Below, one piece after another: positions 49,290-60,687 of a stretch of DNA of 64,000 bases. Position 1 is the first letter of the stretch; the number at the start of each line of letters is the position of its first letter. The stretch covers positions 1,632,001 to 1,696,000 of the forward strand of contig CBDDIJ010000002.1 in assembly GCA_965228855.1 (NCBI GenBank), given 5' to 3'. Under the pieces are notes generated by a model. That model had not been told where the DNA came from and searched no databases. It saw nothing but the letters and a program-made list of their open reading frames with translations. This DNA comes from Candidatus Obscuribacterales bacterium (lineage in GTDB: Bacteria; Cyanobacteriota; Vampirovibrionia; Obscuribacterales; Obscuribacteraceae). A program made the translations under genes and the position numbers.

Positions 49290-50402
49290 TTAGAAAACTT
49301 CTTTCAGCGCTCTTACAACAAGTTCGTTTTCTTCCATCGTTCCAACAGATATGCGCAAACAGGTAGGCAAGCCGAAAGCCGCCAGGGGTCTGATTGCTAT
49401 GCCTTTGCGCAGAACTCCGTTGTACACGCGGTTGGTTTCTTCCTCGCTTCCCATTTCGAAGAGCACGAAGTTTGCATGCGAGGGAATGCGCTTCATTCCA
49501 AGCTTATCGAGCTCTTTCGCGAAGTAAGCCAAGCCCTCTTCGTTATTGGTGACGGTTTTCATCAGGAAGTCGCGATCGTGAAGAGCCGCTAGCCCTGCGT
49601 AATGCGCGAGGATGTTTGGTTCGAAAGGCAATTTGATCCTATTAATAAAATCGATCAAGTGATCATGACCCAAACCGTAGCCAAGGCGAAGACCAGCCAT
49701 GCCCCAGGCTTTCGAGAATGTGCGCAGCGTCAAGACATTGTCCAGGCGATAAGTCATCGAATCCGGATAGTCCGGCTCTTTGCATGCGAATTCATAGTAC
49801 GCCTCGTCCAGCACGACGAGAACGTGCTCAGGAACCCGTTCCATAAAAGCTTCGAATTCAGCGCGCCGAAAAATTGTGCCGGTCGGGTTGTTCGGATTAC
49901 ATAGGTAGATGATCTTAGTGTTCTCGTTGATGGCGTTGGCAATGCCGTCGAGATCGAAGGTGTAGTTTTTGAGCGGCACCTTGTGAAGCTTGATTCCCAT
50001 GCCGTTGACCAGCACGTACAAGCCGATAAAAGTGCCCTCTGACGTCAACACCTCATCGTTATCGTGGAGAAAGGCGCGCAGTGTGTTGGCAAGGATACTT
50101 TCGCTTCCGCTTCCGATAGCGACGTTTTCGACTTTTACGCGGTAGCGCTCTGCTAGTGCGGTTCTGAGAGTAATGCCACCCGATTCAGGATAGCGGTGCA
50201 TGTCTTTGGCGCCTTCGGCAATTGCCTGAATTACCGAATCCGGTGTGCCAAGGGAGTTTTCATTAGAAGCCAGATTGATAAATCGCTCAATGCCCAGCTC
50301 TTTCTTCAAAGCTTCAGGTGGTTTGCCTGGTTTGTACGGCTGAAGTGCCTCTACGTGCGGAGGTACGAGCTTGCGCTTCTTGGGGCTATTCGAGATTGTC
50401 AT
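49290..50402 (-). CDS. hisC: histidinol-phosphate aminotransferase
   Basis: YKPGK, LASNEN, CNPNNPTG, LDEAY and RTFSKAWGMAGLRLGY. Confidence 0.93.
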   Translation of the reverse strand: MTISNSPKKRKLVPPHVEALQPYKPGKPPEALKKELGIERFINLASNENSLGTPDSVIQAIAEGAKDMHRYPESGGITLRTALAERYRVKVENVAIGSGSESILANTLRAFLHDNDEVLTSEGTFIGLYVLVNGMGIKLHKVPLKNYTFDLDGIANAINENTKIIYLCNPNNPTGTIFRRAEFEAFMERVPEHVLVVLDEAYYEFACKEPDYPDSMTYRLDNVLTLRTFSKAWGMAGLRLGYGLGHDHLIDFINRIKLPFEPNILAHYAGLAALHDRDFLMKTVTNNEEGLAYFAKELDKLGMKRIPSHANFVLFEMGSEEETNRVYNGVLRKGIAIRPLAAFGLPTCLRISVGTMEENELVVRALKEVF

Positions 50403-50634
50403 GGTTTCCCTTGCGATTGCCACTGTGGGTGCCTGTTTCAAATATTGAGAACCAACCGAAGCCGGAAGCCAAAGAGGTAGAGTTAGGCGAAACGACGTCT
50501 CGCACGGCACTTCCGAGCTCCTTCATAAAGTTAACATCTAAAGTACGTAAAAACAAATATGTAATTGGTAATGAACGTTGCAGGACATTGGACCTTTCCT
50601 GAGCCTTCATGTTAATATGCACTTACGCCTTCAT

Positions 50635-50708
50635 GCGGGTGTAGTTCAATGGTAGAACGGCAGCCTTCCAAGCTGCACACGCGGGTTCGATTCCCGCTAC
50701 CCGCTCCA
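50635..50708 (+). tRNA. tRNA-Gly (anticodon TCC) with encoded CCA
   Basis: GCGGGTG/TACCCGC acceptor stem, GCAGC-cttccaa-GCTGC anticodon arm, GGTTCGATTCC T-arm, TCCA end. Confidence 0.97.
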
Positions 50709-50760
50709 ATTTTGAATTGAATAGCAATAGCAGTGCATCACGTCATCCGATGGGCTCGAT

Positions 50761-51300
50761 TCAGGTCCACTCGATGTTTCTCAGGCACTCTTTGATTTCC
50801 TTGACGTACTTGGGATAGGAGCTCGTCGGCGCGAGAAAGTATATTTGTTGCACCACGCAACCGCTGTCATCTGCCGCGATGTATAGCGAGTAGGTGTCCC
50901 ATTCCTGCCTGAGCCATCGCCCCTCGACGACCAGGAGTGTCCTGCCTCCTGTGACCTGGGTGTGGATGGCTAGTGGCTTAAACGAGTCCGGCTGGCAGAT
51001 CTCTTCAAGCATGCCGGCAATGCTTTTGATTTCTTTGGCGGGGAGGCTGTGAGGCGGCGTCTCCAGCACTGCCTTGAACGCAGCTCCTGTCGGCAGGTCA
51101 TATGGGAAACCGCGATAATAGAAACATAGCCGCGTGTCTTCGCTGTCTTGCGGCGAAAATTCTCGCAAGCTCTGTTCGTGGTTGTCACTACCCGTGGTGG
51201 CGGTTTCCGTCCAACCAGCGGGCAGCAAAAGACGCTTAATTTGACCGTGGTCGACGACTTCTGTCGAGATGTTTACTGAATCCAATCGATTTCGTCCCAT
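50761..51300 (-). CDS. PsbP/Mog1/DcrB-like fold protein, partner of the giant protein
   Basis: LLLPAGW at the N-terminus, GGRTLLVVEG, and QIYFLAP-x3-Y-x2-Y-x6-L-x2-I at the C-terminus; overlaps the upstream gene by 28 bp. Confidence 0.65.
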   Translation of the reverse strand: MGRNRLDSVNISTEVVDHGQIKRLLLPAGWTETATTGSDNHEQSLREFSPQDSEDTRLCFYYRGFPYDLPTGAAFKAVLETPPHSLPAKEIKSIAGMLEEICQPDSFKPLAIHTQVTGGRTLLVVEGRWLRQEWDTYSLYIAADDSGCVVQQIYFLAPTSSYPKYVKEIKECLRNIEWT

Positions 51301-54300
51301 AGCGAGGTTTTCGGATCACGATAGGTTGCACCTTCGGCAATCGCCCGACGGCGGACGCGCTCACCGGCTAACCATGCGTCGTATTCATGAAACTGCATGT
51401 AGTTTTCGTACAAGGTTCTGCGCCGCTCGTTGATTTGATCTACGTGCCTGCGCATATGTTCGAGAATAACTTTTCTGGCTTCCATTTCCACATCGTTGTT
51501 CCAGGAATTGTCGTCTGCGCCGTTCATGTAGCGATTTAAACGTCGGGCATAATCAACCAGCTCCGGATGCATCGTGTCGGTTCCGAAGAAGCGCTGAGCT
51601 GTCAGAGTTCTGCTCTTCGAGCTACTGAGGTCCATTAAGATGCGCGCTGCAACGCTCTTTTCGTTGGCCTTACCTTCCAGTCGCGGTATCTCGCGTTGAA
51701 TTCTGCGGAAACTGTTGCCAAGCTCGATCCATTCTTGACCCACCGGTTGGTTGAGACTGAACGCTTCCATCAAAGATTGGGCTCGCGCAGCGGCGGTCTC
51801 CGGAAGTTCTGTTCCGTTTCTCAAATCCATTACGCGGCGGGCGTATTCGTCGGGCATGTTGCGACCGGTGCGATCTTTGTATAGCTCCCTGAGGACCTTC
51901 ATATCTGTTTCGGTTGGCTTGGTTCCCAGCTTGAGCTCATCGGCCAATGCTCTCAAAATTGTAGTTTGTTGTTCGTTGTGAACGAGTTCGTGATAAACCG
52001 TTCCCAACAAATCTGCGACGGCTTTGTCATTGAGCATTTCAGCTTTGTTGATACGGATAACTCCATCGCCGTAGGTCGCAACGGCTGAGCCCATGTGCTC
52101 CGGTAAAACCAGTTCCACTTTGACATTCGGAATGCCGACCAGACTACCGTCTGAATTTCTGAAGCCGGCTACGACGCTGTTTGCAAGATCTTCGATTTGC
52201 TGCCTTCTGGGTTCCAGGGCGTCATCGAGCTTTTCCAGTAGTCGATAATTTGTGTCTCTGGCATCGAGATATGCGTTTATTATCTTAAGCTTGTCGGGCT
52301 GCCCTTCGTAGAATTCATTCATCAGCTCTCTGGTCTGATGAATGCTGCCCACGTGCAGACCGGGAACTTCCTGCGCAAGTTCTGAAAACTGATCGCGGTT
52401 AGCGAGAATGACATCCCGAGCTTCTTTCATCTCTTTGAACATGGGCTTGTAATTGTCTTTCCAGCCCTGAAAAATTGGTAAAGCATTTTGCGTGAATGCT
52501 TCAGTGAAGTCCGGATCGGTGAGCGGCGTGTCGCGTCCGCTCAGCATCTCGAACAGCGCGCGCTTGTCCTCGTACTCGAGTTCATCGAAGTGGCGATTCG
52601 GAGACCATAAACCGCCATTCGGGTCTCGATCGCCTATGATTTGCTCGCTCGGTGCTGTGACACTATCTGCGGTGCGTACTGGTGCGTCGAGTGCATGCGG
52701 GGACGCGTCGAAACTATCCGGCGATGATGCGACGATATCTGCAGTCGATGCGACGCTGCTGCCGTCTGCCGCCGGTGTGCTGTCACTCGTAAAGAGTCTT
52801 CTGAACCACCCCTTTTTCTCAGGTCCCGGTTCGGGACCCGGGGTGGGACCGGGCTTGGGCAGGGGCGGCGGTGCATGTTCGAACATCGAGTGATACAGCT
52901 GTTCGATCGGAATGGCCCGATCTCCCATGTGGTCTTTGCCGAAGCCCCACTGGTTTGTGGCATCGACCACAGCTTTTCCTGTCCGTGGGTCCTGGCGCAC
53001 GCCATGCACGTTGACCACGTGCCAGCCGCCGGAACCGCCCGCACGTCCTGCACCTGAATCGGTGAACCATGGCTCGTTTCTCGTGTGCACGAGGAGAATT
53101 CCAGGACCCTGACCATTGTTAGTAACTCTTTGAATTTGGTCCTGAAGCTCTCTAGCCGAGTTGACGGCGTATGAACTGTCGGTGCGAGGACCTCCTGCAT
53201 TCACGGTGCCCCGTATGACGAAATGCTGGTCTTTTGTGCCGGCGATCTGGTTGTAGATGTCCGTCAGTTCAGGACCGGTGATGTGCGGTGAATCCTGAAG
53301 CTTGGTTCTGCGGATGAAACCATTGCTGTCAACGGAGTATTTCACGAGTTCTTCGCCGGTCTTCGACGTAGTAGGACCACCCGGTTTTTCGTAGACGACA
53401 ATTTCGCCGGGAGCGACTTTAAACTCGTTGCTCCTTGCATACTTGAGGTTGACCGCGGTTACTTCAAATATCTGACTTGCGTAGGGGCGCTTGCCGTCGA
53501 TGCGTAAATCAGTGCCGTTCGCCTGAAACGTCCGCGCCAGAGCTTGAGACTCGGCATCCGGTTTCAGCACGCCGGGTACTCGAGCCAGGTCGACGGTGAC
53601 ACCATCAGCGGTGACATACTTGCCGTTGATGACGACATCTGAAATCAGCCGCGCAGCCTCGGACGGTTCACGCGTAAACATTCTCGCTTCTACTGTGGAA
53701 ACGTTACAGGTGTTGTTATAACCCTGGCATATCCGCGGATCGCTTGCCAGGTCCATGATTTGCTCGGCAAGCCGCGCGCGTTCCGGAGCCGTGAGAAACG
53801 CCCCGTATTCTGCGGTAAACAGCCTGCGCACATGGAAGAAGGTTTGTGCCTTCTCTTCCGCGGAGAGACCCATTTTTTGAGCTCGTAGTTCGAATTGACT
53901 CATCATCGTCTTGAATCGTCTGCTTTGTGCTTCGTCAGGGAAGCTCTTCGCAATGAGATTCATTCTGCTGAGTTCTTCGGAGAATTGGACGTTCTTGTAT
54001 TCGACTCGCCCGTTCGGATGATGCACTTCGCGCACGCCGTCCACGCGTTCGATGGTGCTCATCGGTGGATTTCCACGATCCGTGAAACGGATGCCGCCAT
54101 CTGGTTCTACGCTGATGTCACCATCCCAGTAGCGTTGTCGTTGTCTATCCGGAGTAATGCGCGTCCAGAGCCCGTCGCTACCGCGAACCGCCACGCTCTC
54201 ATCATCAAATCGGATTGTTGACAATTTGCCGTCGGCACCGTATGTGAAACCATTCCTGTTTCCTTCAGGATTCAACGTCTGCAGGACGCGCCCGTACTGG

Positions 54301-57300
54301 TCTTCGAGTCTTCTAAAATTGAGGAAGTTAGTAATTTCTGTGGTGCCGTCCGGTCGCTTAACTGCCTGATCGAAGTTTTTGCGAGGAACCACAACCAGCC
54401 CATCAGGTTGTCGATATCCCTGGTTGGTGATGAACTTCAGCTCTGGTCCATCCAGACTGCCGAGGTGAATCTGATCGTTCGGCCCGATGAGAGTCGAATT
54501 GCCTTGAAGGAAGTCAACTTTTCCGTCAGCACGTTTGATGTATGTGCCGTTTCCACCCGCACGCATCATGACGGTGCGTTCTGCGAAGTCCGGGTTCTGT
54601 GCCGAGGCTCTCGTAAGGTCTGTCAATTCCCATGATTGCGCTGACTCATTCCATTTGAGTTTTGCGTGAGTGTTTGCGACCCGCCGGTTGAGAATGTCGG
54701 ACGGGCTGTCGTTTCCAAACGATTGGTGTTTTCTTCCTATCATCAACTCGCCGTCGGCGTTTGGATGCAACGGTTGTCCATCGAAGAAAATTCGAACGTC
54801 CACGTCACCTTTAGGACCCGGCGGCGGTTTCATGTCTTCGCCGTTACGAACCCGCAGTTTCACTTCGGGACCGTCGGCAGAACCCAGTCTGACTGAATCG
54901 TTCGGTCCGAGATAAACACGATAGGGTTTCTCTTTGCCGCCCGGCAGATAAGTAAATTCGCTCTCCCCTGCTCGTTTCAAATACGTTCCGTTGAGAGAAT
55001 GTTCCTCCAGATAGTACATTTGCTGCTGTGCGTCGAAGTGCACAGTGGCATGATTGGTCGATACCAGCAAATTCGAATCGTTGCGGATAAGCCCCAGCGA
55101 ACGGCGACCAAGTTCGACCGGCGGTCCATCATGGCTGATCTGGTGACCGTTTATCGCTCTGCCGTCCAGGGTCAACTCCGCACCGTCATAAAGATCGGTG
55201 AGGTGATACTGGTTGCGATCGATGTGCACACTGATTTTGGGTACTACCGGTGCCTCCACGCGGGGGGCTTCCAGACCGTGTCGGCCGTCATCTCCGAACA
55301 GGGGAATTTGTTTCTCAGGCGGTTGGTACGGCGCTGCCTTCAGATCATCACGCGCATGGATTTGATATTTGTGCTTGATGTAGATGCTCTGCTTACCGCC
55401 CATTTCCATCAGGTCGAAAACCTGACCGTGCTCGTTGCGATAATACTGTTTCCCGTTGATTTCGATTGGCTTATAACGACCGTCATTTTCGAAAGGTCTC
55501 ATTTGAACCGCCCAGCCCTCACGTTCCGGGAATTCGACTATCGCCTCGCCCGTGCGCGTGTCATAGCCCAGGAGCTTGCCGCGCTCGCCTTTCGCTATGA
55601 CCTCGTGTCCTTGTAGCAAAATTTGAGGTGGACCGCCCTTACCGTCTGAACCGACGACGACTCCACCCGATGAATCAGTTATTCCCTTAGCCGTTTCTCC
55701 CGCTGCAGCATCGTGGGCACCGCCAGTGGTGCTGTCGCGGAGTGTCTGGCCGGCCGCATTCTGTGCGGTGCTCTCAGCTCCGTTGACAGCCGCATCATCG
55801 GCGACGTCAGCGACCTGCCCAACTATGCGGCCGGTGGATTCACCGACGGCTCGACCGCCACTCTCTGTCACGACTGCCGCACTACCTGTGATGGCAGCCC
55901 CACCGCCGGTAACAGCGGTGCCGTCTCCTATTGCCGCAGCAGCGCCATTAGGTGTGGTCACTGTCGGTCCGTGAGTTGTCCTGTGTGGTGCGTCCACTTG
56001 CCGAAACGCGCTTACAGTTCTGCCGATGGCGCGGAACCCGGCCGTGAAGCCTGCTGCCATGCCTGTTCCTGTCAGGCTGCCGGTAAACCCGGATTGAGCG
56101 AGCTGGTAAAGGTTGTCTGAAACCGAGCGGGATTCATCGAGGTCTTTGACACCGTAGACCAGCCCGGAAAGCCCGCCTCCAACGTTTCCCGCCAGGCTGT
56201 TCAGACCCAGCTCTCTCATCTGTGCCTTGAGCGCGTTGGCGCCTTCCTGACGAATCGCTTGACCCAGGCTTTGTTCAACGACCGCGGCCAACGCCGGAAC
56301 GTCTTCAGGGGATGCGGCGAAGTCGGAAGCGATGCGCGTAAATGCTTTTTGATCGACACCGTCTGCACCGTTGGAGATAGCAAACGCGACTTCCTGGAAT
56401 ATGCGTTGCTGCAGCTTTTCTTCGGAGCCTTCTTTCAACAGCTGTCTGCCACCCGCTTTCAGAAGATCGTCAGATTGGGCGATTACTGTGGCGGCAGCAG
56501 TCTCCGCCGACTTGGCACCGAGCTTCAAAAACTGAGCAGCTTGCGCTGGACCGAGGAAAATCGTGGCCGCGTCGATTGCACCAGTGGCTCCGTCCGCCAG
56601 AACATCTGCGCTGGCAAAGTCGTAGTCGTTGCCGACGATGGCTGCCTTTGCACCGACTTTGAACAAGGCTCCGCCGAGGCTGGTGTAAGCGAGGAGCGAG
56701 AGGCTGACGCCACCGGTGAACTTGGCGCCGATTACACCGGCTGCAATTATGGCGCCATCGACGACCATGTCCGCAGCGGAATTTTCAGACTTACCGTAAA
56801 GTTCTTTGGCTTTAATGAAGTTCGCCTGGAATTCGGCACGCTGTTCGGGTGGCATCTCTTCGAAGCGTCGCGTGTAGCCGGCCATGCCGGATGCGTACTG
56901 ATTGAGTTCATCCATCGTCATGTCGGCGGTGCCGTCGATAGCGTCGACAAATGAGCGTCCTATTCCGTCCACGCTCTTGTAGACGCCATCGCGCGCGGTG
57001 TTAAACGCTTCGCGGGCTGTCTCCGGTTGAGCGCCTGCTGCCCGGATGACTTTCTCCCGATCGCTGCCACCCATCTCTTGCAGCGTGTCTCCGAGCATGT
57101 CGGAGTCGTACTTTCTCAGGTATTCTGCCCGCGCTGTTTCGATCTGCGCTTGCGAGAGACCTTTCAATGTCTCGTGAATAACTTCTTCAGCGGTGCCGCC
57201 GCCAAGCATCGCTGCGCGGATCTTGTCCTCAGGACGCATTTCGCCGCGTTGTCTTGCGATGTTGAGAGCGACTTCGCGTTCTTCCACGCTGAGAAACGGC

Positions 57301-59483
57301 AATGTGCCTCTGGGATCGGCAAGGATTTCGTTCCAATCTTTATCATTACCTTTGCTTATCTCATCAAGCAAACTCTTCTCGTCGTCGTTGAAGAAGCCTG
57401 TGTAAAGCTCCGCCTTCACCTTCATCGGGACGCGTCCCTCTTCAATCAGAGGTTTTGCGTATCTCTCGTATTCATCGTCGTCGAGAGCGCCATGAATTGC
57501 CTCGTCGAACTTCTTGCGGTACTCGGGATCGTCTTTCAACCTGTCGCGCAGCTTGGGATCTTTGCGGAACGCTTCCTCGAGGTCGGCGATAACCTTGGCT
57601 TCGTCGGTGTTCATGTGATCGGCATGAACATAAAGCTTCGACAAAATATCGTCTTCCGGTTTGTCACCGCGGGTGATGGCGTCAAGAACGGCGAATGCAG
57701 ATTTCTGCTCTTCGCCTTCGTCCATGCCGTCGATAATGAGCTGGTCAACTTTTTTCTTGAACTCCGGATCCGTTCTATAGCGCTCTTGGTCGGATTTGCT
57801 CATTCGCCGCAGGGACTCTAGCACGCCTTCTTCACTCGTGTTGAAGAAACCGACCTCGTCACCCACGGATTCTAGAATAGATCTCTGAGCGCCCTGTGAT
57901 TCAATGTACGTTTTTGCCTGGAGCTTAGCTGTCAAAAGTGCATCGACTCGCTTCATCTCGTCTTCGCTGAGATCGATCTTCAGTACTTCACGCACACGCT
58001 TGAGTTGATCGGGATCATTTTTCAACAGATCCCAATCATCTTTGGACATGTCTTCAATCGTGCGGAGAACTTCACCCATGCCGTCGTCAATCATGCCGCC
58101 GTGTTTGGCTAATTGACTTACGAGCGTGCCGTCCTTTTTACCGATCAGGTCTTCCCATTTTGCGACTTCTCTTTCGTTGCCTGCTCCGACCAGGGCTTTA
58201 TGCAGTTTTTCGTAGTAAGTTTTGTCCGCTTTCTGTTCGTCGCTTAAGCCATCGGGTGGCGTGCCTGCGAGATTTTTGCCTCGCACATATGACTGTCGCT
58301 CGCTGTCGGTCATGCGCTCGATCGCCAGTTCAATGGCTTCCTCGTTGTCATTGACGACGCCGGTGTTTGCCTCAATCTTCGTGGAGACATCCAGTTTTCC
58401 GAGTTTGGCGTAATCGAGCGCTTGTTTGCTGTCATCGGTGACGCCATAAACAACCTCTCCGGAGGGACCATAACCTTGCCCACTAGTCACGGGTTTGCCG
58501 AAAGTAACCAAGATTCGGTGCTCGCCGCCATTGTTGAGGAACGTCTTACGAGCGGCCGGCGACGCATCTCGGAACGCTTCTTGAAACATGTCGAGATTTT
58601 TTTCTTTCAAGGCCAGATCGGCAAGCTTCAATGTGTCGGCATCGGTACGTTTATCCGTGCCTTTCAGGTAGATCTCCAGGGCCTGCTTTGTCGACTCGGG
58701 CAAATTGGGGTCTTTGAGCAGGGCATCGTGAATGCCGACACCATTGTGCTCGGCGCGATAAACCTTGTCCATCTCGGCGATCTGCTGCGAGTTCATCGTG
58801 CTAATCGTGTCACGAAGATCTTTTTCAATTGTGGAATTGGAGCGAACACCCAAGCCCCACTCCTTGTGTTCGGTCAGGGCGACGTCGACTCTTGCTGCGT
58901 CGATGTTCTTGGGTTTCCAGAGAGCAAGCGACCGTTCGAGGTCAGAACCGGACAGCTCGTCTCTGAGTTCATCCTCGATACCGTGACCTACGAGCTTTTT
59001 GTAAACCTTGTCCAGCTCTTCGCGATCCTGGGGATTCTTGATGCGCTTGAGCTGTTCGTTTATGGCGTCTTTGTCCGTGCCGATTCCGGTCCAACCGCCG
59101 TTTGCAGCCTCATTGATGGCTTCGGCGATCTTTTGAAGCTCCTTAGCAGTCAGCCGCTTTGCTTCGGCTGGTGGGGTGTTCGTTCCAACGAGTTCCACTG
59201 CGCTCAAGCCTGGTGCTGTCGCCGCCGGTTTCTGAGCGTCTTTTACAATTTTGAGCGCGTCCGGCTGACCAAATTGCTGCTGGCTGACGTGTGTCTCGAT
59301 GGCGGTTCCTGAGGGTCTGGCGTCACTCGGCGCGGCGGTCGCATCACCCTGAGTCCCCTCCGGTCTGGTTGCAGGGATTGTTTGCTGTTGAACGACGTGC
59401 GCCTCAATCCTGTCGCCCGGCGGCTTTGCTTCAGCAGCCTTGCCGTTTCCGGCAGGTTTTGTGGTGTCTACAATTTCAGACAT
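51273..59483 (-). CDS. giant multidomain protein: annexin-like repeats, hydrophobic helices, 2 FHA, YD-like repeats, Cys protease, HExxH metallopeptidase
   Basis: uninterrupted 2736-aa ORF; motifs detailed in findings. Confidence 0.85.
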   Translation of the reverse strand: MSEIVDTTKPAGNGKAAEAKPPGDRIEAHVVQQQTIPATRPEGTQGDATAAPSDARPSGTAIETHVSQQQFGQPDALKIVKDAQKPAATAPGLSAVELVGTNTPPAEAKRLTAKELQKIAEAINEAANGGWTGIGTDKDAINEQLKRIKNPQDREELDKVYKKLVGHGIEDELRDELSGSDLERSLALWKPKNIDAARVDVALTEHKEWGLGVRSNSTIEKDLRDTISTMNSQQIAEMDKVYRAEHNGVGIHDALLKDPNLPESTKQALEIYLKGTDKRTDADTLKLADLALKEKNLDMFQEAFRDASPAARKTFLNNGGEHRILVTFGKPVTSGQGYGPSGEVVYGVTDDSKQALDYAKLGKLDVSTKIEANTGVVNDNEEAIELAIERMTDSERQSYVRGKNLAGTPPDGLSDEQKADKTYYEKLHKALVGAGNEREVAKWEDLIGKKDGTLVSQLAKHGGMIDDGMGEVLRTIEDMSKDDWDLLKNDPDQLKRVREVLKIDLSEDEMKRVDALLTAKLQAKTYIESQGAQRSILESVGDEVGFFNTSEEGVLESLRRMSKSDQERYRTDPEFKKKVDQLIIDGMDEGEEQKSAFAVLDAITRGDKPEDDILSKLYVHADHMNTDEAKVIADLEEAFRKDPKLRDRLKDDPEYRKKFDEAIHGALDDDEYERYAKPLIEEGRVPMKVKAELYTGFFNDDEKSLLDEISKGNDKDWNEILADPRGTLPFLSVEEREVALNIARQRGEMRPEDKIRAAMLGGGTAEEVIHETLKGLSQAQIETARAEYLRKYDSDMLGDTLQEMGGSDREKVIRAAGAQPETAREAFNTARDGVYKSVDGIGRSFVDAIDGTADMTMDELNQYASGMAGYTRRFEEMPPEQRAEFQANFIKAKELYGKSENSAADMVVDGAIIAAGVIGAKFTGGVSLSLLAYTSLGGALFKVGAKAAIVGNDYDFASADVLADGATGAIDAATIFLGPAQAAQFLKLGAKSAETAAATVIAQSDDLLKAGGRQLLKEGSEEKLQQRIFQEVAFAISNGADGVDQKAFTRIASDFAASPEDVPALAAVVEQSLGQAIRQEGANALKAQMRELGLNSLAGNVGGGLSGLVYGVKDLDESRSVSDNLYQLAQSGFTGSLTGTGMAAGFTAGFRAIGRTVSAFRQVDAPHRTTHGPTVTTPNGAAAAIGDGTAVTGGGAAITGSAAVVTESGGRAVGESTGRIVGQVADVADDAAVNGAESTAQNAAGQTLRDSTTGGAHDAAAGETAKGITDSSGGVVVGSDGKGGPPQILLQGHEVIAKGERGKLLGYDTRTGEAIVEFPEREGWAVQMRPFENDGRYKPIEINGKQYYRNEHGQVFDLMEMGGKQSIYIKHKYQIHARDDLKAAPYQPPEKQIPLFGDDGRHGLEAPRVEAPVVPKISVHIDRNQYHLTDLYDGAELTLDGRAINGHQISHDGPPVELGRRSLGLIRNDSNLLVSTNHATVHFDAQQQMYYLEEHSLNGTYLKRAGESEFTYLPGGKEKPYRVYLGPNDSVRLGSADGPEVKLRVRNGEDMKPPPGPKGDVDVRIFFDGQPLHPNADGELMIGRKHQSFGNDSPSDILNRRVANTHAKLKWNESAQSWELTDLTRASAQNPDFAERTVMMRAGGNGTYIKRADGKVDFLQGNSTLIGPNDQIHLGSLDGPELKFITNQGYRQPDGLVVVPRKNFDQAVKRPDGTTEITNFLNFRRLEDQYGRVLQTLNPEGNRNGFTYGADGKLSTIRFDDESVAVRGSDGLWTRITPDRQRQRYWDGDISVEPDGGIRFTDRGNPPMSTIERVDGVREVHHPNGRVEYKNVQFSEELSRMNLIAKSFPDEAQSRRFKTMMSQFELRAQKMGLSAEEKAQTFFHVRRLFTAEYGAFLTAPERARLAEQIMDLASDPRICQGYNNTCNVSTVEARMFTREPSEAARLISDVVINGKYVTADGVTVDLARVPGVLKPDAESQALARTFQANGTDLRIDGKRPYASQIFEVTAVNLKYARSNEFKVAPGEIVVYEKPGGPTTSKTGEELVKYSVDSNGFIRRTKLQDSPHITGPELTDIYNQIAGTKDQHFVIRGTVNAGGPRTDSSYAVNSARELQDQIQRVTNNGQGPGILLVHTRNEPWFTDSGAGRAGGSGGWHVVNVHGVRQDPRTGKAVVDATNQWGFGKDHMGDRAIPIEQLYHSMFEHAPPPLPKPGPTPGPEPGPEKKGWFRRLFTSDSTPAADGSSVASTADIVASSPDSFDASPHALDAPVRTADSVTAPSEQIIGDRDPNGGLWSPNRHFDELEYEDKRALFEMLSGRDTPLTDPDFTEAFTQNALPIFQGWKDNYKPMFKEMKEARDVILANRDQFSELAQEVPGLHVGSIHQTRELMNEFYEGQPDKLKIINAYLDARDTNYRLLEKLDDALEPRRQQIEDLANSVVAGFRNSDGSLVGIPNVKVELVLPEHMGSAVATYGDGVIRINKAEMLNDKAVADLLGTVYHELVHNEQQTTILRALADELKLGTKPTETDMKVLRELYKDRTGRNMPDEYARRVMDLRNGTELPETAAARAQSLMEAFSLNQPVGQEWIELGNSFRRIQREIPRLEGKANEKSVAARILMDLSSSKSRTLTAQRFFGTDTMHPELVDYARRLNRYMNGADDNSWNNDVEMEARKVILEHMRRHVDQINERRRTLYENYMQFHEYDAWLAGERVRRRAIAEGATYRDPKTSLWDEIDWIQ

Positions 59484-59664
59484 GGTGCCTGAGGTCTCAT
59501 CCAGCTTGCCCTTACGAATTTATTCCCAATTATGGCTCAGGATATATAACAAAGTTGTGTAATCAAGAGGTCCAAAATGCCCATAGAGTTGAGGAATTTC
59601 GTGTTGCATCCGGTGGTTTATCCCTGATAGACTGACCATCATTCGCTTTTGAGGAAGCGCCGTA

Positions 59665-60687
59665 TTGGTTTTGTCAAGGAGCCTGGTGTCTGTGATTGTA
59701 GATAGAGTCAGCCTTAGCGACGTTCTCGTCGCCCAGAAGCGCATTAAACCGTTTGTGCTCAATACGCCCTTAGCCAAGAGCTTTTGGCTCAGTGAACTGA
59801 CACAGGCCGAAGTCTGGTTGAAGCTTGAGAACCTGCAAAACACCCGCAGTTTTAAGCTGCGCGGAGCGCTTAATGCGCTGAGCTGGGCACGTGAAAAGGG
59901 CATGGTCAAGTGCTTCTCCTCGACAATTGGCAATCACGCATTGGCGATGGCACAAGCGGCGCTGTTTACAGATCGCGAAGTGACAGTCTGCGTGCCGGAA
60001 AACGTTTCGCCCAAAAAGCTGAAGGAACTCGACCGTTATTCGGTCGGCATTGTCAAGCATGGGGAGGAAGCATCGGTCACCGAAGTTTTCGCTCGTCGAT
60101 TGGCTCAGGAGAAGAAAGGGCTTTATGTTTCGCCCTACAACAACCCTGAGGTGATTTGCGGGAATGGCACCATAGCGCTCGAAATGTTCGAGCGTGTCCC
60201 GAAATTCTCGACCATCATTTGCGCAGTCGGCGGAGGCGGTCTAATCAGCGGTATCGCGACAGTCGCCAAAGCCATCAATCCTTCTTGCCGTATCGTCGGC
60301 GTTGTTCCGAGTGCCGTGCCGACCATGCATCGCGCCGTGACAACCGGAAGAATTCAGCCGTCGATAGCGAATTACACGCTGGCTGAATCGCTTGCCGTGA
60401 ACATCGAAGAAGACACCATAACTTTGCCTCTCGTCCAGGAACTGGTTGATGAGTGGGTCACTATCGATGAAGGCGATATTGCTTCGACGATGTTCGAATT
60501 CCTTGACCAGGAAGGCATGTTAATCGAAGGAGCAGCTGCTTGTGCAATCGCTGCCATCGCCAAGAAGGTGATCAACTTCAAGCCGCGCGAGAAAGTTGCA
60601 GTCATCGTATGTGGTGCCAATGTCAATAGAAACGACTGGCGTGAAGTTGTTGTCGATCACCTGGTTGGTGCCCGCACTTCCGTTTAA
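59665..60687 (+). CDS. PLP-dependent threonine/serine dehydratase-family enzyme without ACT domain
   Basis: LKLENLQ-x-TRSFKLRGA, GNHA, VGGGGLISG and CGAN. Confidence 0.88.
   Translation: MVLSRSLVSVIVDRVSLSDVLVAQKRIKPFVLNTPLAKSFWLSELTQAEVWLKLENLQNTRSFKLRGALNALSWAREKGMVKCFSSTIGNHALAMAQAALFTDREVTVCVPENVSPKKLKELDRYSVGIVKHGEEASVTEVFARRLAQEKKGLYVSPYNNPEVICGNGTIALEMFERVPKFSTIICAVGGGGLISGIATVAKAINPSCRIVGVVPSAVPTMHRAVTTGRIQPSIANYTLAESLAVNIEEDTITLPLVQELVDEWVTIDEGDIASTMFEFLDQEGMLIEGAAACAIAAIAKKVINFKPREKVAVIVCGANVNRNDWREVVVDHLVGARTSV

Follow-up and report, generated by a model that had tools for sequence, protein, structure and literature searches.

A giant protein family of Obscuribacterales with cargo domains swapped behind an annexin-containing chassis, and a small gene that comes and goes with its papain-fold domain

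A 64,000-nucleotide stretch of DNA from a Candidatus Obscuribacterales bacterium (contig CBDDIJ010000002.1 of assembly GCA_965228855.1, positions 1,632,001 to 1,696,000; hereafter the window, with coordinates counted from its first letter) contains a gene for a modular protein of 2736 amino acids (aa), which we call the giant, followed by a small gene for a putative partner protein. We found that the giant belongs to a family in which different cargo domains are swapped behind a conserved N-terminal chassis, and that the small gene is gained and lost together with one of these cargoes, a domain with a predicted papain fold (the Cys domain). We regard as evenly balanced the reading that the giant is an exported multi-cargo effector of an Obscuribacterales chassis family, with its Cys protease likely held in check by the small protein. 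The features on which this reading turns are the following.

51273-59483, minus strand: giant modular gene (P0001), 2736 aa; read from the sequence, with a 97% identical orthologue in the related genome G007
50761-51300, minus strand: small partner gene (P0002); its length is 179 aa if the first ATG is used, but more probably 169 aa, with the start at 51270
52872-53960, minus strand: papain-fold Cys protease domain of the giant (aa 1842-2204; Q1920, C1926, H2155, N2177); supported by conservation and a structure model

We define the chassis as a conserved module of ~1050 aa made up of annexin, helical and hydrophobic parts. In a class-wide draw, a profile of this module matched 30 of the 33 genomes of the source organism's taxonomic family and none of the 117 others, and a search with the whole giant among 40 relatives found it in 22 of 24 genomes of the same family, all 3 of a sister family and 1 of 13 from other orders. 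In a 1.84-billion-entry library, 672 chassis representatives (50%-identity clusters) were recovered at E <= 1e-30; 150 of these matches were listed, and among the 150 and the giant the chassis end is complete in 138. Cargo is swapped behind this conserved chassis: among the matches listed, the 138 proteins carry beta repeats (43), forkhead-associated (FHA) domains (34), Cys domains (34) and HExxH metallopeptidase-like domains, or zincins (30), and the last 200 aa of 128 tails fall into 49 clusters. A first-pass annotation of this DNA had set in advance, as a check, that homologues should combine a conserved N-terminus with swapped C-termini, and they do. Pfam searches of 45 representatives chosen for tail diversity added PRTase-CE, dual-specificity phosphatases (including the polymorphic-toxin model Tc-R-P), PP2C, Zeta toxin, Phage_30_3, transglutaminase-like, PGDYG, GGDEF, leucine-rich repeat (LRR) and tetratricopeptide repeat cargoes, and many tails had no match. 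Where source names are given, family members are called hypothetical protein, annexin or FHA protein, and 23 related chassis loci are labelled mostly Obscuribacter, Obscuribacterales or Melainabacteria, with three vaguer or other cyanobacterial labels. Our literature searches found no description of the chassis family or of such an architecture, in line with the earlier remark that the domain combination was not recognised from any described family; such architectures could be listed in the supplements of PMC3482391 or PMC5512222.

Two further observations concern these loci. Proteins of 340-710 aa with Gly-rich hydrophobic segments lie beside giants (L096:18283-19356, L097, L098, L045, L040:11958-14093, L111:18387-20423 and, in the source genome G000, C2:322954-323973, where C2, C3 and so on denote contigs); some end in a domain that by eye resembles the Phage_30_3/NADAR-type tip of the family member P0025, and a kinase-like gene is often next. 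At L036, L097, L101 and L110, family genes are split into two open reading frames (ORFs), through either assembly error or decay.

The link between the small gene and the Cys domain was counted at 65 chassis loci that are complete and have 700 bases or more of sequence downstream, eight incomplete rows having been dropped. Of the 21 giants with a Cys domain, 19 have the small gene downstream, directly adjoining in 17 cases and, in 2, separated by an inserted gene but still within 3.5 kb; of the 44 giants that have no Cys domain, 1 has it downstream. On a chassis tree, built with FastTree only, the Cys label changes 10 times, and independent tree pairs link the small gene to the Cys domain in 7.4 of 8 cases (median p 0.016); for the zincin the tree gives no link (0.7 same, 2.9 opposite), and the link to the FHA domains is weaker (p 0.125). 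Two congeners, G002 and G005, retain the same two flanks, the chassis (60-64%) and the zincin (55-56%) while being without aa ~1215-2275, the block of FHA, beta-repeat and Cys domains, and in both a Ser/Thr-kinase-like gene stands in place of the small gene. When Cys ORFs of every architecture are taken together, 38 of 81 adjoin a small gene, which is an undercount because the profile missed a divergent copy behind another Cys gene (94% by hhalign), and the paired trees of Cys domain and small gene correlate (r 0.52, reached in 0 of 999 permutations). The small gene is gained and lost together with the Cys domain.

The first-pass annotation had correctly foreseen a linked small gene at homologous loci. 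It had coupled that gene to the C-terminal catalytic domain, a claim that fails, since the gene tracks the internal Cys domain and shows no link to the zincin. This bears on an alternative in which the giant would be a self-processing toxin whose Cys protease frees the zincin, with the overlapping gene as zincin immunity. The gene order at this one locus fits such a toxin, as do the intact catalytic residues of both domains. At the level of the family, only 4 of 16 zincin-bearing giants are followed by the small gene, three of those four also having a Cys domain, and the two congeners above kept the zincin when the small gene was replaced. Moreover, the Cys domain is terminal in 28 of the 34 chassis proteins that carry it among the matches listed and also occurs outside the chassis; self-processing is unlikely as a family mechanism because a mostly terminal domain has nothing behind it to release. 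We consider this alternative very improbable.

The small protein belongs to a family of ~165 aa with 9 members in the source genome by profile and none in 200 other genomes of the phylum, drawn without genomes of this order. None of 56 members has a hydrophobic N-terminus, and the protein is therefore probably cytoplasmic. The earlier annotation had assigned it to a PsbP/DcrB fold; by profile comparison it is putatively DcrB-like (88%, E 3e-6 over 136 columns, against a profile built from weak PF08786 matches, with 0.25% for the reversed profile), and the comparison with cyanobacterial PsbP gave no match (0.5%). Its neighbour in the atlas is DUF4946, and the protein itself has no Pfam match. 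Between G000 and G007 the small gene differs by 8 synonymous and 3 non-synonymous codons. The gene is present and linked as first described, but its 28-nt overlap with the giant's stop codon is probably a start-codon artefact: the 179-aa form rests on the first ATG, whereas the orthologue in G007, at the 97% identical locus, has its ATG two bases past the giant's stop and an annotated product of 169 aa. At window positions 51268-51270, G000 has ATC where G007 has ATG, and translation in G000 may use this ATC or the ATG 30 bases upstream. A complex prediction for the Cys domain with the small protein scored 0.56, 0.01 and 0.11 in its runs and counts neither for nor against the pair. Elsewhere in the family, a group of orthologous giants that have no Cys domain (G000 C3:1207714-1213999, L159, L160, L161 and L050) has a small gene upstream; their tail domain is HD-like by eye, is duplicated in some, and has no informative Pfam match.

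The Cys domain combines the fold of clan CA with its Gln/Cys/His/Asn active site. Its model (pLDDT 92.6) is matched by papain-fold proteins, the top five of which are tied at Z 9.1-9.5 (phytochelatin synthase Alr0975, PeiR, a CdiA-CT, calpain 9 and staphopain), calpain 9 giving the longest alignment among the top matches (202 residues, root-mean-square deviation (rmsd) 3.8); identity to papain-fold structures is 9-11%. Foldseek with this model returned no match at E <= 0.001, searching the PDB by sequence with the Cys domain, the small protein and the FHA domains yielded nothing useful, and Pfam C39_2 matches weakly in 6 of 48 Cys family members. The four active-site residues Q1920, C1926, H2155 and N2177 are kept in 100, 98, 97 and 92% of 66 homologous ORFs, and the codon differences to G007 across the domain are 24 synonymous versus 4 non-synonymous. 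On its modelled fold and residues, the predicted domain could be a protease, a peptidoglycan hydrolase, a deamidase or a transferase. A papain-like Cys protease had been placed at aa ~1915-2185; the modelled fold and the catalytic residues agree with a papain-like domain there, but it is wider (1842-2204) and has a helical cap that was missed. The family is multi-copy, with 12 ORFs in G000 (for example C3:2061082, C5:1070539, C3:1143740, C5:593357 and C2:518326) and up to about 15 scored matches per genome; it often occurs without the chassis, and one subgroup has a ~100-aa insert. LysM is present on 4 of the 19 Cys homologues listed. In 150 genomes of the class, the family was found in this order only, the same pattern as that of the VirB4-like gene described below.

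Ahead of the Cys domain, the N-terminal part of the giant is divided as follows.

59154-59483, minus strand: polar, non-hydrophobic N-terminus (aa 1-110); from the sequence
59181-59210, minus strand: family N-terminal motif of the type L-P-x-V-[ET]-[IL]-x-D (aa 92-101); candidate export or chaperone-binding signal
56784-59162, minus strand: conserved helical chassis with degenerate annexin-like units (aa 108-900); from profile and model
58914-59138, minus strand: annexin repeat 1 (aa 116-190), carrying GxGTD and, downstream of it, the acidic residue E176; from Pfam, a structure match and a repeat profile
57033-57242, minus strand: annexin repeat 2 (aa 748-817); from Pfam and a repeat profile
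55974-56783, minus strand: Gly/Ala-rich, moderately hydrophobic helices (aa 901-1170) at the conserved chassis end; candidate membrane-insertion segment

None of 69 chassis proteins has a hydrophobic stretch within its first 60 aa, as against 37% of the genome's ORFs that are at least 300 aa long, which agrees with the earlier remark that there is no obvious signal peptide. The N-terminal motif, which sits ~50-60 residues into chassis proteins, was recovered in 27 of 61 and 33 of 61 members of held-out halves of the family (4-5% in shuffles) and in 8 of 43 stand-alone Cys proteins (2% in shuffles, 3.6% of genome ORFs). Two further G000 proteins, an amidase/NlpC-P60 protein and one with LysM, carry it too. 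A 506-aa protein at G000 C5:905682-907202 combines the motif with a low-complexity region and, at its C-terminus, a copy of the small-protein domain.

Pfam identifies two annexin stretches in the giant (E 8e-9), and PDB annexins match aa ~125-258 in sequence searches. An AlphaFold2 (AF2) model of aa 108-1170 (pLDDT 77.9, pTM 0.69) is almost all helix, and Foldseek with this model places annexins on top; annexin I matches model residues 3-83 with Z 11.3 and an rmsd of 1.5 over 73 residues. Repeat 1 has the five-helix form with GxGTD and the acidic cap, G135, T136 and E176 being conserved in 11, 12 and 9 of 16 sequences. The first-pass annotation had read annexin repeats throughout aa 112-812. 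Two stand, ~630 aa apart, but a repeat-1 profile reaches only E 0.003-0.4 for the remaining units, and the chassis has no compact four-repeat annexin core (TM-scores to whole annexins <=0.39). The hydrophobic Gly/Ala helices of that annotation exist as a conserved segment, but their hydrophobicity is moderate, and pLDDT is low across much of the segment.

The cargo that surrounds the Cys domain comprises two FHA domains, a beta unit and, behind a linker, the zincin.

54846-55148, minus strand: FHA domain 1 (aa 1446-1546); G-R, S-x-x-H and N-G residues present
54423-54758, minus strand: FHA domain 2 (aa 1576-1687); Ala replaces the Ser of S-x-x-H
53982-54362, minus strand: short YD-like beta-repeat unit before the Cys domain (aa 1708-1834); RHS_repeat is matched in relatives only
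52617-52871, minus strand: Pro/Ser-rich linker (aa 2205-2289); from the sequence
51276-52616, minus strand: HExxH...E metallopeptidase-like domain (aa 2290-2736); conserved residues and a weak SprT/Spartan match

The domain order proposed at the outset (annexin, two FHA, papain-fold, HExxH) largely holds. Pfam finds FHA in two stretches (E 8e-8), and we judged them by the FHA motif residues G-R, S-x-x-H and N-G. A 'phospho-Thr-responsive' character had been suggested; it is not a family trait because FHA is an optional cargo, carried by 34 of the 138 chassis proteins among the matches listed. Of the claimed YD/RHS-like repeats there remains a beta unit of ~125 aa, short of the long YD-repeat cage of Rhs type; relatives match RHS_repeat, but the giant does not in Pfam. 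The C-terminal zincin is borne out by H2498, E2499, H2502 and the downstream E2700, kept in 14 of 14 aligned copies. Its library matches are weak (SprT/Spartan, E 0.009), and its nearest atlas clusters carry LPD23 (0.90), a lead only. Codon differences to G007 are 18 synonymous versus 5 non-synonymous in the zincin and 34 versus 4 in the FHA region. By these sequence measures, the catalytic residues of both the Cys domain and the zincin are intact and under purifying selection.

The giant gave no Pfam or NCBIfam match to a leader of a known secretion route (signal peptide, PAAR/VgrG, WXG/LXG, two-partner secretion (TPS), MuF or PVC metallopeptidase, PVC standing for Photorhabdus virulence cassette). 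In G000 (95% complete) we found no match to the FlhA/SctV, FliP, VipB, sheath and Phage_GPD families, and PF04984, PF17482, PF05954 and PF05943 (sheath and VgrG-type) were not found, the tube family itself not having been searched. The loci for a type III secretion system (T3SS), type VI secretion system (T6SS) or extracellular contractile injection system (eCIS) that the first-pass annotation had wished to look for thus left no marker in single-family searches, and such negatives are at risk because PF03135 missed VirB4-like genes that PF19044 found. Those genes lie at two chromosomal positions, C2:2003758 and C3:3048514, the latter adjoining genes for a VirD4-like coupling protein and a Replic_Relax protein; the scores of all three kinds of protein fall short of the curated cut-offs set for named NCBIfam families. 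The C2 VirB4-like protein occurs in 35 of 35 genomes of the order and 0 of 115 others at E <= 1e-30, mostly at 73-93% identity, and the coupling protein and the Replic_Relax gene each occur in 43 of 45 order genomes. This shows availability only, because one clade amounts to one event. That the order-wide chromosomal VirB4/VirD4 system is the exporter of chassis proteins is a tentative assignment, with the balance somewhat against it.

Besides large multi-membrane proteins, the two type IV-like loci (G000 C2:1990000-2007731 and C3:3042915-3065575; L118, L120, L121) also hold DUF2225-like genes and a pilin-sized gene in two copies. Throughout the order, the ATPases, the coupling protein and the Replic_Relax gene of these loci are conserved, mostly in one copy per genome, and we found no paper on them. 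The gap between the coupling protein and Replic_Relax genes (L224-L233, 9 genomes) is a variable insertion site of 4-30 kb, four of the genomes sharing a metabolic gene cluster there.

The same negatives would suit a different role, in which the giants are non-exported, membrane-associated defence or signalling platforms whose annexin and FHA domains sense membrane stress or phosphorylation and thereby turn on the enzymes inside the producer. The lack of a signal peptide and of any T3SS, T6SS or eCIS marker fits such platforms, as do the signalling-type cargo (FHA, GGDEF, PP2C) and the kinase-like genes downstream at L033, L034 and L048, and a cytoplasmic partner is equally consistent with regulation. 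Yet neither protein has a PADLOC match, the links to LysM and amidase imply an extracytoplasmic substrate, and a motif common to unrelated cargo proteins is more easily understood as a trafficking signal than as part of a sensor. We consider this role unlikely.

In the exported-effector reading, we infer every delivery step, with confidence falling from the partner through Sec-free export, membrane docking and a bacterial target to the exporter. The small cytoplasmic Mog1/DcrB-like protein would bind the Cys protease in the producer as an inhibitor or chaperone. The giant would then be exported without a Sec signal by means of its polar N-terminus and the short motif there; its annexin repeats may dock on an anionic membrane, the Gly/Ala helices would insert, and the cargo would end in or on the target cell, the enzymes acting after insertion of the chassis. 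The target would more likely be another bacterium than a eukaryote, and LysM on Cys homologues, together with the amidase and LysM proteins that carry the motif, points to targets with a cell wall.

An alternative keeps the exported chassis and aims it at eukaryotes such as algae or protists, the small protein then being a secretion adaptor. Annexin, FHA, Tyr/dual-specificity phosphatase, PP2C and LRR cargoes would fit eukaryotic targets, a family member (L108) comes from a diatom co-culture genome (PMC10868163), and the relative Vampirovibrio preys on Chlorella, for which a type IV secretion system (T4SS) is proposed (PMC4451040). PsbP/MOG1-like genes beside T6SS toxins have likewise been proposed as adaptors (PMC3482391), and the small gene is also found upstream of giants that have no Cys domain. 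Against this, the LysM, amidase, Zeta-toxin and GGDEF associations suit bacterial targets, an adaptor would be expected to follow the chassis and not one optional cargo, and the Vampirovibrio T4SS, as described there, is a plasmid T-type system whereas the loci here are chromosomal. We also judge a eukaryotic target for the family unlikely.

Several observations weigh against the exported-effector reading itself. By profile, 43 of the 81 Cys ORFs have no adjacent small gene; six Cys-free giants have a small gene just upstream (five on the same strand, one on the opposite strand); L138 has a downstream small gene and no Cys domain; and orphan small-gene copies exist in G000. The chassis filter left two loci outside the partner count, L043 (Cys domain and small gene) and L107, which has a Cys domain and no small gene and was excluded by length. 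The N-terminal motif is present in only about half of the chassis family, and across the genome it is too weakly enriched to yield a list of effectors. As membrane segments, the Gly/Ala helices are modest, the best 19-residue hydrophobicity mean being 1.57 and the next 1.14. Contig ends that cut genes short may account for some of the 49 tip clusters; P0003 and P0051 look like such cases. As for the exporter, the co-distribution with VirB4 is that of a single clade, 10 stretches beside the coupling protein in 9 genomes contain no chassis, Cys or partner gene, and the conservation of Replic_Relax in 43 of 45 genomes suggests that the type IV-like machine moves DNA.

A wider proposal, which we hold to be doubtful, is that a domesticated conjugation-type VirB4/VirD4 system is a core, order-wide protein injector that reads the N-terminal signal and delivers a large arsenal made up of the chassis enzymes, the multi-copy papain-fold family with its Mog1-like inhibitor, and cell-wall hydrolases. 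If true, it would imply a predatory or antagonistic lifestyle in a lineage known almost only from metagenomes. The chassis proteins would give Obscuribacterales its first described effector family, and the Cys domain would be a new papain-fold family with a candidate cognate inhibitor. The results give a testable idea of how these uncultured cyanobacterial relatives live, and they point to a conserved, unstudied chromosomal type IV-like machine.

The source genome (8.2 Mb in 6 contigs, 95.3% complete, 5.8% contaminated) has the giant in a chromosomal setting, with conserved housekeeping-type genes and a tRNA gene as flanks.

50635-50708, plus strand: tRNA-Gly(TCC); conserved flank, present too at syntenic loci without the cassette

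The 2736-aa ORF, the small ORF ending at 50761 and the adjacent tRNA-Gly are all where the first-pass annotation had put them. We rejected the tRNA-Gly as an integration site, which is not needed because the flanks are the same in congeners with and without the cassette, and we rejected an assembly chimera because G007, P0006 and P0009 have the same architecture. Strains ~97% identical carry the whole locus (window 49500-60500) in sequencing runs whose labels are bioreactor sludge, algal bloom and marine metagenome, and 4 runs spanning these positions showed no joint and no deleted form of the locus. No RNA run was among those listed for it. G+C over the giant gene is only 0.52-0.58, with similar rises elsewhere in the window. 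In G000 as a whole there are 117 ORFs of at least 1200 aa, the largest of 9530 aa, and an 8541-aa protein at C3:2827646 has a divergent chassis and a zincin. At C4:40000-75000, eukaryote-like short ORFs adjoin a trb-type conjugative element; this contig looks chimeric, probably through contamination.

Among known systems, the giant most invites comparison with polymorphic toxins and polyvalent proteins, and it fails a defining feature of each: a known leader and an immunity gene specific to the tip are missing in the one comparison, a mobile element in the other. With polymorphic toxins, as PMC3482391 presents them, it shares a conserved N-terminal part, a variable enzymatic C-terminus, an annexin before the enzyme (annexin domains ahead of toxin domains being known there from PVC-type toxins) and a PsbP/MOG1-like neighbour of the toxin gene, which that paper describes at T6SS loci. 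It differs in having no PVC metallopeptidase, PAAR, VgrG, WXG or TPS leader and no sheath- or VgrG-type gene found, in having two annexin repeats within a ~1050-aa chassis and several cargoes per chain, and in a partner that follows an internal cargo and is not an immunity gene cognate to the C-terminal toxin domain. Polyvalent proteins (PMC5512222) similarly combine unrelated enzymatic domains in one chain; their HExxH metallopeptidases number from one to several and may stand anywhere in it, their cargo includes GGDEF and PRTase types, and a T4SS is one delivery route. The giant also joins several unrelated enzymatic domains including a zincin, but it is chromosomal among housekeeping genes, away from phage, conjugative elements or a T4SS, and has a fixed membrane-type chassis and a cognate partner gene. 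Annexin, FHA, LysM and papain do not appear in the main text of that paper as available, and none of the 45 scanned chassis representatives has a DNA-binding or anti-restriction domain.

The two proteins of the locus also have relatives of their own. T6SS-associated DUF1795/Eag-type Mog1/PsbP/DcrB-like proteins act as chaperones. The small protein resembles such adaptors in its DcrB-like profile match and in adjoining an effector-like gene, and differs from them in that no T6SS was found and in that it follows a protease cargo and not a transmembrane segment. The Cys domain shares its fold and its Gln...Cys...His...Asn order with clan CA peptidases (the calpain core, C39-like peptidases, phytochelatin synthase, PeiR and the CdiA-CT of Citrobacter rodentium), from which it is set apart by the 9-11% identity, by its own helical cap and by its occurrence, among 150 genomes of the class, in this order only. 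Bacterial annexins, finally, were surveyed in 2014 (PMC3894181) as 34 proteins from 17 species, none cyanobacterial or melainabacterial in the part of the survey available; in them too, GxGTD-type repeats are found in fusions with membrane segments and with domains of metalloproteases or toxins. Set beside those 34 proteins, the one family described here, with its 672 clusters at 50% identity, would be a large expansion of the bacterial annexins.

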